Virus record (IMG/VR): IMGVR_UViG_3300047121_000347 | Span: 1-64,000 of that record | Length of the DNA: 64,000 nt | Reading direction: 5' to 3' (one strand) | From: a virus | Shown: piece by piece, positions 55,583 through 56,407 of the stretch | Layout: every line of letters starts with the position of its first letter | Numbering within the stretch: the stretch's first letter is position 1 | Notes under the pieces: generated by a model | What the model was told of the DNA's origin: nothing | What the model saw: only the letters and a program-made list of their open reading frames with translations | Databases searched by the model: none | Translations under genes and position numbers: made by a program

Positions 55583-56407
55583 ATGGGCCAATTTAAACCG
55601 ATGGTTAAAATGATGACCACCGAGCCTTCAGTGATTCTGAAACTGAAGAAAGGCGGTTCGGTCAAAGCGCCCAAAAAGATGATGGACGGTGGGGTGATGC
55701 GTGGTCTTGCGGCCGCGCCTGCACCCGGTGCCCGAGGCGGGATGCCTCCGGCGGTTGCTCCGGCACGTCCCTCGATGGCTATGCGTCGCAAAGCGATGAT
55801 GGCTCGCCCGATGATGAAAGAGGGCGGCGAAAGCAAAGCTGAGCACGCCGCTGAGATGAAGAAGATGATGGGCACCGAGGCTAAGCTCAAAAAGCACGCC
55901 TCTATGCCTGCTTCTAAAGCTCACAAAGGTCTTGCAACCGGCGGTGTGGCAATGGGTCAGGCAGGGTTCAAAAAGGGTGGAGTAATTGGCGTAGCGGCCT
56001 CTGAAAAGGGAGCTAAGGGTTATGTCAAGACCAAGATGGACACTGCTTCAGGCGAGCATCACACTCCGAAGAAGACTGGCGACGTGGCAATGGGCAAACC
56101 CGGCGGTTACAAGCACGGCGGGAGCCCCAAGTACGCTAAAGGTGGCGGAGTCGAAGGTAATGTTTCGACGTCCAAACCCGGCCCAACCAACACCACCACT
56201 GGCGAAGTGAAGAAAGGCAACGCCGGGGGCTTTAAGAAAGGCGGTGCGTTGGGAAAGCGTTATGCTACGGGGGGTCTAGTCGATAGCGGACGTCCCGTAG
56301 CGATGCCTCGGCACCCGGTGTCGAAACCCGTGGCTAATGACCTGCAGTCCGGAACCTTCAAAAAGGGTGGCGGAGTACAGAAAAAGGCCTACGGCGGCGC
56401 GTGCTAA
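55583..56407 (+). CDS. basic low-complexity protein with 11 xxxGG repeats
   Basis: LKKGG, MMDGG, MKEGG, LATGG, FKKGG x3, YKHGG, YAKGG, YATGG, KAYGG. Confidence 0.7.
   Translation: MGQFKPMVKMMTTEPSVILKLKKGGSVKAPKKMMDGGVMRGLAAAPAPGARGGMPPAVAPARPSMAMRRKAMMARPMMKEGGESKAEHAAEMKKMMGTEAKLKKHASMPASKAHKGLATGGVAMGQAGFKKGGVIGVAASEKGAKGYVKTKMDTASGEHHTPKKTGDVAMGKPGGYKHGGSPKYAKGGGVEGNVSTSKPGPTNTTTGEVKKGNAGGFKKGGALGKRYATGGLVDSGRPVAMPRHPVSKPVANDLQSGTFKKGGGVQKKAYGGAC

Follow-up and report, generated by a model that had tools for sequence, protein, structure and literature searches.

We analyzed a stretch of DNA (the window) that covers the first 64 kb of an IMG/VR virus record of 101,830 bp whose source is lake water. 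Among its phage head genes is an open reading frame (ORF) at 55583 to 56407 for a 274-amino-acid (aa) protein built around a short Gly-Gly peptide. An earlier note on this DNA had described the peptide as a [YFLMK][AKMN]xGG motif that recurs 11 times in this protein, is shared by five unrelated late proteins, and might act as a packaging or processing signal. Our comparisons support the peptide as a real short linear motif under selection at the protein level. In gene order, the capsid gene (53936 to 54853) is followed by the gene for a 227-aa protein, the ORF at 55583 to 56407, three small ORFs, the gene for a DUF6321 protein (57575 to 57979), and the gene for an SU10-type adaptor (57984 to 59054). 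The features at and around the 274-aa gene are as follows.

53936..54853, plus strand: major capsid protein, HK97-type without a delta domain (Pfam Phage_capsid_4 and Mu gpT; synteny in 80 loci).
55569..55574, plus strand: Shine-Dalgarno sequence AAGGAG, 8 nucleotides before the ATG, read from the sequence.
55583..56407, plus strand: gene (ORF) for the 274-aa Lys/Gly/Ala/Met-rich protein, of a large family of unnamed proteins from freshwater phages.
55583..55657, plus strand: first 25 residues, MGQFKPMVKMMTTEPSVILKLKKGG, where conservation in the family is highest, with invariant or near-invariant columns; this stretch ends in the first motif copy.
55775..55921, plus strand: helices predicted at residues 65-73, 85-107, and 110-113, with no other secondary structure in the model (AlphaFold; predicted local distance difference test score [pLDDT], ~71-88).
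56384..56404, plus strand: C-terminal tail KAYGGAC.
56410..56438, plus strand: GC-rich hairpin with a UUCG loop and a T-run, terminator-like, directly after the stop codon.

The ORF begins three bases after the stop of the upstream gene at 55580. Its product contains 41 Lys, 50 Gly, 35 Ala, and 22 Met residues and has a net charge of about +35; the charge averages about +40 across the family. We found 4669 family matches among 8000 scored metagenome candidates, and these form 376 clusters at 50% identity. The 274-aa protein itself had no Pfam or PHROG match, and a Pfam search with it and ten long relatives, which included the KGG repeat (stress-induced bacterial acidophilic repeat), returned no family at an E value of <=0.01. 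None of the relatives in the family is named, and 0 of 396 longer homologues carried a Pfam domain or fusion. ESM Atlas returned unnamed viral clusters only, with weak leads to DUF6496 and DUF5872 that Pfam did not confirm on the inserted modules. No cultured phage with the gene was found; the single GenBank phage match was the uncultured MW202545, whose 450-aa homologue is 35% identical overall and nearly identical over the N-terminal 25 residues.

The family consensus for the N terminus is MGQFKPMVKMMTTEPSV.LKLKKGG, and 88 of 150 cluster representatives start with MGQFKP. Cys is the last residue in 83 of these 150. Nearly all of the 235 full-length members end in basic-x-GG, one to four residues, and then the terminal Cys, a set that was selected partly by terminal Cys, so that the Cys end itself is true by definition of the set. 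An AlphaFold2 model made from a 105-sequence alignment had a mean pLDDT of 58.8 and was mostly coil. On this model the strongly basic protein is predicted to be intrinsically disordered, and its motif copies fall within the predicted disorder. No folded capsid-binding domain, beta-grasp fold, or globular effector domain was predicted in it.

Each of the 11 motif copies, and each copy that had been named in other proteins, was present at its position. The 11 copies do not overlap, and an overlapping KKGGG brings the number to 12. All 11 are listed here.

55643, plus strand: LKKGG, at the end of the 25-residue N terminus.
55679..55693, plus strand: MMDGG (G36 and G37 invariant in alignment A1).
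55814..55828, plus strand: MKEGG (G81 and G82 invariant in 105 sequences).
55931..55945, plus strand: LATGG(VA).
55967..55981, plus strand: FKKGG(VI).
56108..56122, plus strand: YKHGG, which closes an internal repeat of ~45 aa (...TGDVAMGKPGGYKHGG).
56132..56146, plus strand: YAKGG(GV) (Y184 to V190 invariant in alignment A1).
56231..56245, plus strand: FKKGG, which closes the second internal repeat (...TGEVKKGNAGGFKKGG; G220 and G221 invariant in 105 sequences).
56261..56275, plus strand: YATGG(LV).
56357..56371, plus strand: FKKGG(GV), after a conserved MPRHPVSKPVANDLQSGT stretch.
56384, plus strand: KAYGG, in the C-terminal tail.

The 12 loose copies compare with 1.0 +/- 1.0, and a maximum of 6, in 2000 composition-preserving shuffles of the 274-aa protein. 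Val stands at +1 or +2 in 7 of the 11 copies, in line with the earlier remark that Val often follows the motif. A logo of 2277 Gly-Gly contexts from 150 representatives had Y/F/M/L at -3 in 60% (background, ~13%), K/A/N at -2 in 78%, and V/A/I at +2 after the Gly-Gly. In the 235 full-length members, the tighter word [YFLM][KAN]xGG occurred 9.6 times on average versus 0.36 in shuffles, and the motif count held steady at 4 to 13 while member length spanned 168 to 691 aa. Spacing between copies clusters at 8 to 12 and ~33 to 47 residues, and the center of the protein consists of two or three copies of a longer unit ending ...TGxVKxGNAGG[YF]KKGG. Across 105 relatives (~45 to 70% identity; mean column identity, 10%) the Gly-Gly pairs are invariant columns. 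Synonymous codons vary among the motif copies of the gene, and no DNA tandem repeat was found in it; because of these two observations, selection appears to act on the peptide. The same two observations rule out the motif as a DNA-level repeat or recombination linker.

We then looked at the motif in the rest of the record. The copies named earlier in the two largest partners were YAAGG at 47344, MNEGG at 47368, and LKKGG at 48313 in a 978-aa protein, and FKAGG at 18804 and YAKGG at 18849 in a 1344-aa collagen-repeat protein. Six more loose copies exist beyond the earlier list: YAGGG in both 499-2121 and 3288-4490, KAAGG in 9676-10173, and three in early genes.

23706..24542, 37087..38622, and 41233..41487, minus strand: early genes with one loose copy each.

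All ORFs other than the target together held 13 loose matches where 7.9 +/- 3.0 were expected (p=0.07). Because this count is close to expectation and takes in early genes, the claim of five unrelated late proteins falls when it is made for the loose pattern. From the family logo we derived a strict pattern, [YFLM][KAN].GG.[VAI]. It matched the target six times, the 978-aa protein twice, the collagen-like protein twice, the twin of the latter in the second genome copy twice, one other ORF, and no early gene. In non-target ORFs there were 7 strict matches versus 1.8 expected over the whole record (p=0.007) and 4 versus 1.3 in the window alone (p=0.05). Thus, of the proposed sharing and enrichment in late over early genes, what stood was the strict form, present in the polyvalent and collagen-like proteins and in no early gene; the loose form was neither enriched outside the target nor confined to late genes.

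In five complete relatives the strict matches in non-target proteins, observed/expected, were 4/1.06, 1/1.08, 4/0.94, 10/0.90, and 2/1.04, and most of them lay in proteins of >1200 aa. Two fibre-like proteins (499-2121 and 3288-4490) have 87 and 42 GG pairs, one loose copy each, and no strict copy. Because these GG-rich proteins hold none, richness in GG is not by itself sufficient for the motif. The strict motif was also absent from the orthologue sets of the capsid (0/63), portal (0/38), adaptor (0/56), p182 (0/44), and GroES-like (0/38) proteins and from those of p113, p101, p79, p194, p227, and p607. It was nearly absent from p204 (1/51) and p807 (1/43), and tail proteins lacked the motif.

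The copies in other proteins had been described as sitting at domain boundaries. They are found in the following features.

45460..48396, plus strand: 978-aa polyvalent-type protein, encoded between terminase and portal (Pfam PcfJ; weak JAB-like motif); the portal is encoded at 48411-50972.
47344..47382, plus strand: double joint YAAGGAVRMNEGG in the polyvalent protein, with a strict copy in 10 of 10 distinct homologues.
48313..48327, plus strand: LKKGG(AVKIETNPTLM) near the polyvalent C terminus; basic-x-GG-x-V(K), often followed by N-P, is conserved in homologues.
18804..18863, plus strand: FKAGGKV ... YAKGGHA, directly 5' of the C-terminal GPGDGQSDDIPAWLADGEFVFPADVV module of the 1344-aa collagen-repeat protein.
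57575..57979, plus strand: 134-aa DUF6321 protein (Pfam DUF6321), downstream of the target gene and found in 74 of 80 loci.
57728..57742, plus strand: LKNGG joint between the N-terminal module and PSLAIGRGEKLP in the DUF6321 protein, kept in 50 of 56 orthologues.
51867..51881, plus strand: KAEGG in the acidic N-terminal region of a scaffold-like protein (encoded at 51729-52721), a weak case.

Relatives bore out the placement at boundaries for the polyvalent, DUF6321, and collagen-like proteins, but not for the scaffold-like protein, which has a long acidic N-terminal region and of whose 47 orthologues only 16 keep the loose copy (9 of the 47 when the first residue has to be hydrophobic). In the polyvalent homologues the YAxGGxV joint is retained although the flanks and inserted domains vary. 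This joint is often double, hydrophobic-A-x-G-G-x-V-[HR]-M-x-x-G-G, and it recurs in unrelated large polyvalent proteins. Acidic variants occur there in the same frame (MAEGGAV, MADGGEV, and FAEGGAV), and because of them a pure DNA-binding role for the motif is unlikely. Asn-Pro often follows the polyvalent joints in the window (48313-48396) and in relatives (GGAVKIETNPTLM, GGKVRISDNPDTM, and QSGGNPK); the 274-aa protein has no Asn-Pro. Asn-Pro is the self-cleaving bond of the FlhB/YscU NPTH loops.

The joint of the collagen-like protein recurs in the five complete relatives, MW202545, and Caulobacter phage RW. The module behind it, GPGDGxSDDIPAxLxDGEFV, matches tape-measure PHROGs over short stretches. 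As a separate observation, this C-terminal module (GPGDGQSDDIPAWLADGEFVFPADVVSALGNGSTKAG; window 18860-19139) stands once or twice at the ends of late proteins in MW202545 and RW, always after hydrophobic-A-x-G-G.

The DUF6321 joint keeps only the loose form, [LMK][KA]xGG directly before PSLAIGRGEKLP, and different N-terminal modules are swapped in ahead of it in orthologues. A 45-residue insert (LYANIHAKRERI...) starts right after a motif copy in eight of nine contexts, behind four upstream modules, and another copy closes it. Inserted or swapped small modules were always bracketed by the motif. Copies also occur at protein ends: FKKGGKVNW ends a MW202545 protein, and two copies lie within the first 28 residues of a 1650-aa polyvalent protein. 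Together with the GG-x(1-4)-C ending of the 274-aa family, such terminal copies would suit docking peptides. For the polyvalent, DUF6321, and collagen-like proteins, a location inside the head is plausible.

A terminal Cys is common to two basic head-module proteins, the 274-aa family and the DUF6321 proteins. The latter end ...RWNCPGW or ...RWKC and have an internal SFCAR Cys (examples: window 57575-57979; L105:9205-9522; L086:2923-3225). The conserved terminal Cys in both suggests that the virion contains links through disulfides or metals.

DUF6321 is a small module that combines promiscuously with other domains. Its fusion partners are the SLT lytic transglycosylase, ART-PolyVal, NUDIX, YkuD, DUF6496, DUF5872, and SU10-type adaptor domains, and a further fusion is to an aminoacyl-tRNA-synthetase-like domain. 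This range of fusions suggests that the module acts in proteins that the head delivers. Iyer, Burroughs, Anand, de Souza, and Aravind (2017; PMC5512222) describe polyvalent proteins, which have a multidomain architecture of the SLT/ART-PolyVal type and for which packaging and delivery together with the DNA are predicted. In 120 DUF6321 fusion proteins we counted 135 loose motifs versus 21.9 expected and 73 strict motifs versus 3.3 expected; a 1365-aa example of the SLT/ART-PolyVal/DUF6321 type had the motif at every domain border. Fusion proteins with the motif at the DUF6321 joint held 68 further copies versus 7.6 expected, and those with E-E-G-P at this joint instead, mostly of the marine cyanophage type, held 2 versus 2.5 expected, counts that are inflated by relatedness among the proteins. 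Motif use is all-or-none between lineages. Because it is, the data suggest a dedicated reader or partner rather than a property of the DUF6321 fold or a need for flexibility. Our literature search found no paper that mentions DUF6321 or the 274-aa family and none in which "prohead protease" and "Gly-Gly" occur together; the main text of PMC5512222, searched by term, gave zero occurrences of "linker" and "glycine".

The position of the 274-aa gene in the head module is fixed: in 80 related viral loci it lies 3' of the capsid gene and 5' of the DUF6321 and adaptor genes. Between it and the capsid gene, the 227-aa gene is present or absent depending on the locus. The 227-aa protein (window 54897-55580), which may serve as a variable decoration of the capsid, is beta-rich and occurs in only 29 of the 80 loci; elsewhere other genes take its place. 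In 55 distinct related loci, a hairpin of <= -15 kcal/mol lay 3' of the 274-aa gene in every listed case. A stricter hairpin-plus-T-run score was reached there in 37 of the 55, compared with 4 of 51 capsid, 0 of 43 p204, 1 of 54 adaptor, and 0 of 56 DUF6321 genes. In a relative without the 274-aa gene, the hairpin lies directly 3' of the capsid gene. The capsid gene is presumed to be the first gene of the transcription unit. Because the 274-aa gene appears to lie between the capsid gene and the terminator of the capsid gene, it is probably expressed at a capsid-like level. Contigs from four runs of one lake metatranscriptome study cover the capsid gene through the 274-aa gene at 100% identity and end at ~56415 to 56511, with little cover downstream. 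This is a weak hint, and assembled RNA contigs cannot rank expression and may include DNA carried over into the libraries; stretches that lack cover were not taken as evidence.

Caulobacter RW-type phages share the capsid protein (75% identity) and the 227-aa and 101-aa proteins and lack the 274-aa gene. Because it is missing from phages that share the neighboring proteins, the 274-aa gene is an accessory gene of the head module. In phage RW (L002:8052-9557), a 501-aa ORF with endonuclease-like features (repeated Cys pairs) lies directly 3' of the capsid gene and occupies the place held here by the 227-aa and 274-aa genes. Only metagenome bins carry the 274-aa gene, and these are mostly assigned to Burkholderiales or Betaproteobacteria. 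Because phage contigs can be misbinned, this is weak evidence for the host.

The genomes of relatives measure 52 to 57 kb. The 101.8-kb record does not represent a single genome. When window 9230-41795 is set against record 64028-100607, large blocks repeat at an offset of ~55 to 57 kb with 77 to 86% identity, and some early blocks stand in inverted orientation with 93 to 94% identity. It looks as if assembly had joined two related phages of ~57 kb (~1.75 genomes in all) or as if part of the genome were truly duplicated.

Candidates for a reader or protease were then considered. The earlier note had named the JAB domain of the 978-aa protein as a possible partner of the motif. The JAB-like motif of this protein, HTHP...SADD (H-x-H...S-x-x-D), scored 12.4 to 13.3 bits with Prok-JAB, against a cutoff of 25; the RadC model did not match the protein, and the region occurred in only one of seven relatives of >=90% completeness with the 274-aa gene. 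The JAB domain was therefore rejected as a general reader of the motif. The usual JAB domain of polyvalent proteins is one of the RadC type, with a predicted action on nucleic acids (PMC5512222). The 101.8-kb record had no Pfam match to the prohead proteases S78, S78_2, and S77, to ClpP, or to the Ulp1-type C48, a search in which adenain C5, poxvirus I7 C57, and MPTase were not included. The product of the conserved head gene p182 (52740-53288), considered as a hidden protease, gave an AlphaFold pLDDT of 47, too poor to judge the fold. PDB sequence searches with p182, p204, and the polyvalent C terminus returned no match.

The multicopy protein had also been proposed as a hub. Four near-complete phages with capsids 66 to 78% identical have motif-rich polyvalent proteins and lack the family by profile (positive control, 4/4), which weakens the idea of a hub required wherever the motif is used. 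One of the four (L152:3369-3911) has another Lys-rich ORF with FKKGG, LKKGG, and HKHEKAQHPGEPLTKLKKGG, three genes 3' of its capsid gene. Motif-rich basic head proteins may thus extend beyond the family as HMMER defines it.

We tentatively favor an account, in our view quite possible, in which the 274-aa protein is an abundant internal polycation of the head that carries a docking or handling peptide shared with other head-bound proteins. The protein would be made at capsid-like amounts and end up inside the head. The motif would be a recognition peptide read by one common partner in head assembly. Most likely, this peptide would dock head-bound proteins to the procapsid interior (shell, scaffold, or portal), much as a cargo-loading peptide does. 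The 274-aa protein would then be a multivalent carrier of the peptide, and its positive charge could help to neutralize or condense the packaged DNA. Points for docking are the terminal copies, the many copies per chain, the restriction to proteins expected inside the head, and the analogy with encapsulins. A bolder version, which we regard as doubtful, makes hydrophobic-[K/A]-x-G-G-x-V the capsid-loading code of an HK97-fold phage head, equivalent to the cargo-loading peptides of encapsulins and present at every joint of the ejected polyvalent proteins, and makes the 274-aa protein a pure multitag polycation, loaded at capsid-like stoichiometry, that would condense the DNA as a phage "protamine". 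Tagged clients might partition into a condensate of this protein and the acidic scaffold.

Several points weigh against docking. Conservation mainly N-terminal of the Gly-Gly and placement at module ends would be just as compatible with a protease site. The argument for high expression comes from the placement of the terminator and the RNA contigs of a single study. All relatives with the gene are uncultured. Caulobacter phage RW, for all the identity of its capsid protein, has neither the gene nor more than a slight excess of the motif (3 versus 0.8), and because of this a docking site on the capsid, if any, is dispensable for some members of the capsid clade.

The first alternative, a serious one that we nevertheless consider unlikely, is that the motif is a cleavage code. 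A phage or host protease would cut after Gly-Gly, so that polyvalent modules are freed and the 274-aa protein becomes basic peptides of ~8 to 45 residues on the DNA. Iyer et al. (PMC5512222) predict for polyvalent proteins a processing into units, with the MPTase domain as the proposed enzyme. Conservation focused from -3 to the Gly-Gly resembles positions P5-P1 of a protease site; the copies fall precisely on module ends, with inserted modules carrying their own copy on both sides; the conserved 25-residue leader ends in KKGG, as a propeptide might; and a lineage-specific enzyme would fit the all-or-none use. Against these stand the absence of a recognizable protease among the families searched, with the JAB-like motif as the sole candidate, and a capsid protein that has no propeptide. 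In addition, most DUF6321 orthologues and the scaffold copy have Pro right after the Gly-Gly, and Pro is a poor P1' residue for most proteases. A cut at the copy one to four residues from the C-terminal Cys would free only a tiny peptide. Finally, the hydrophobic residue occupies P5, whereas the sites of adenain, (M/L/I)-x-G-G, those of papain-like proteases, L-x-G-G, and the ubiquitin tail, L-R-G-G, have theirs at P4.

The second alternative needs no dedicated partner. The motif would be the grammar of flexible joints in general, with aromatic residues and Lys as "stickers" and Gly-Gly as "spacers", and the 274-aa protein would be a low-complexity polycation that charge and cation-pi contacts hold on DNA or on the acidic scaffold, perhaps within a condensate; the sharing among proteins would reflect common descent of linkers. 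The high net charge, the predicted disorder, the long acidic region of the scaffold-like protein, and the repeat-like spacing agree with this, as do the G-G-[YF]-K-K-G-G units, which resemble aromatic-rich kinked segments. However, each Gly-Gly and its hydrophobic -3 residue is kept site by site in the 105 diverged sequences while the surroundings are free, and acidic versions hold the same frame. Marine DUF6321 proteins join the same module through E-E-G-P without an excess of the motif; because they do, this word is not needed for flexibility as such. We think joint grammar improbable.

Very unlikely is an external decoration of the capsid, in which the 274-aa protein is a basic floppy fibre that binds cell surfaces or polysaccharides and the copies in other proteins are unrelated. 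Its gene does lie 3' of the capsid gene beside the variable 227-aa beta-rich protein, a place where decoration genes are often found, and as an accessory gene it is missing from RW-type relatives. Such a role is at odds with a motif common to polyvalent and SLT-carrying proteins, expected inside the head, and with the lack of a predicted folded capsid-binding domain. Barely credible is that the sharing across proteins arises only because a degenerate pattern meets proteins rich in Gly, an account to which the near-chance loose count and the poorly conserved scaffold copy lend themselves and which stands only for the scaffold and early-gene copies, whereas for the polyvalent, DUF6321, and collagen-like proteins it appears largely refuted by the strict pattern, enriched across the window and the five complete relatives taken together and in the DUF6321 fusion proteins, and by motif positions kept in orthologues with diverged flanks.

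The rules by which head proteins are selected and injected are known for only a few model tailed phages. The candidate signal described here is short, recognizable, and lineage specific. Many proteins that carry effectors have it at their joints, and its copies are concentrated in a single protein, probably an abundant one, that has thousands of relatives in lakes. If the signal directs loading or cutting, it would give a simple rule to predict injected proteins in a large group of freshwater phages that are uncultured, a portable tag with which to load proteins into phage heads, and the first function assigned to the unnamed family and to the common DUF6321 module. If it is only linker grammar, the result is a well-documented low-complexity protein family of modest interest.

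Of the known systems, we compared polyvalent proteins first. The motif-bearing partners resemble them: they are multidomain and lie in the head gene neighborhood, the 978-aa protein is PcfJ-like, and relatives combine SLT, ART-PolyVal, NUDIX, and DUF6321. The 274-aa gene is likewise encoded among head genes in the 80 loci. However, its product has no effector or enzyme domain and is essentially all joint, whereas the 978-aa neighbor and the DUF6321 fusions do combine two or more unrelated domains of this kind.

The T4 internal proteins (IPI-III and Alt) are small or basic, are loaded into the prohead in high copy through a short N-terminal peptide, and stay with the DNA. Their capsid targeting sequence is removed by the gp21 prohead protease, and T4 sites read L/I-x-E. 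The conserved 25-residue leader, a possible targeting peptide, and the high charge of the 274-aa family are reminiscent of this. Unlike in T4, we found no match to an S77-type or other prohead protease, and the motif here is internal and present in about ten copies rather than once at the N terminus.

Adenovirus pVII and pre-mu/pX are cut by adenain at (M/L/I)-x-G-G|x, and African swine fever virus polyproteins are cut at G-G|x. These too are basic DNA-associated virion proteins with hydrophobic-x-Gly-Gly sites. In the 2277 contexts, in contrast, the hydrophobic residue is at P5 and K/A/N is at P4; the C48 model was negative, and the animal viruses are unrelated. The JAB/JAMM peptidases QbsD/QbsE and Mec+/CysO trim tails after Gly-Gly. 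The GG-x(1-4)-Cys ending of the 274-aa family and the H-x-H...S-x-x-D of the 978-aa protein recall them, but the substrate here is predicted to be disordered and has no beta-grasp fold, the JAB match does not reach its cutoff, and the domain is absent from most phages that carry the gene.

Encapsulin cargo-loading peptides are short, contain Gly, lie in disordered tails or linkers, sometimes in several copies, and dock inside an HK97-fold shell. The motif is likewise a short conserved peptide in the disordered ends and linkers of candidate cargo, and the capsid here is HK97-type by Pfam. It differs in having no sequence similarity to known loading peptides, and phage cargo must also exit via the tail. 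What appears to be new here, compared with all of these systems and judged from sequence, is a lineage-specific joint or handling peptide of phage head cargo together with a large unnamed family built from that peptide.

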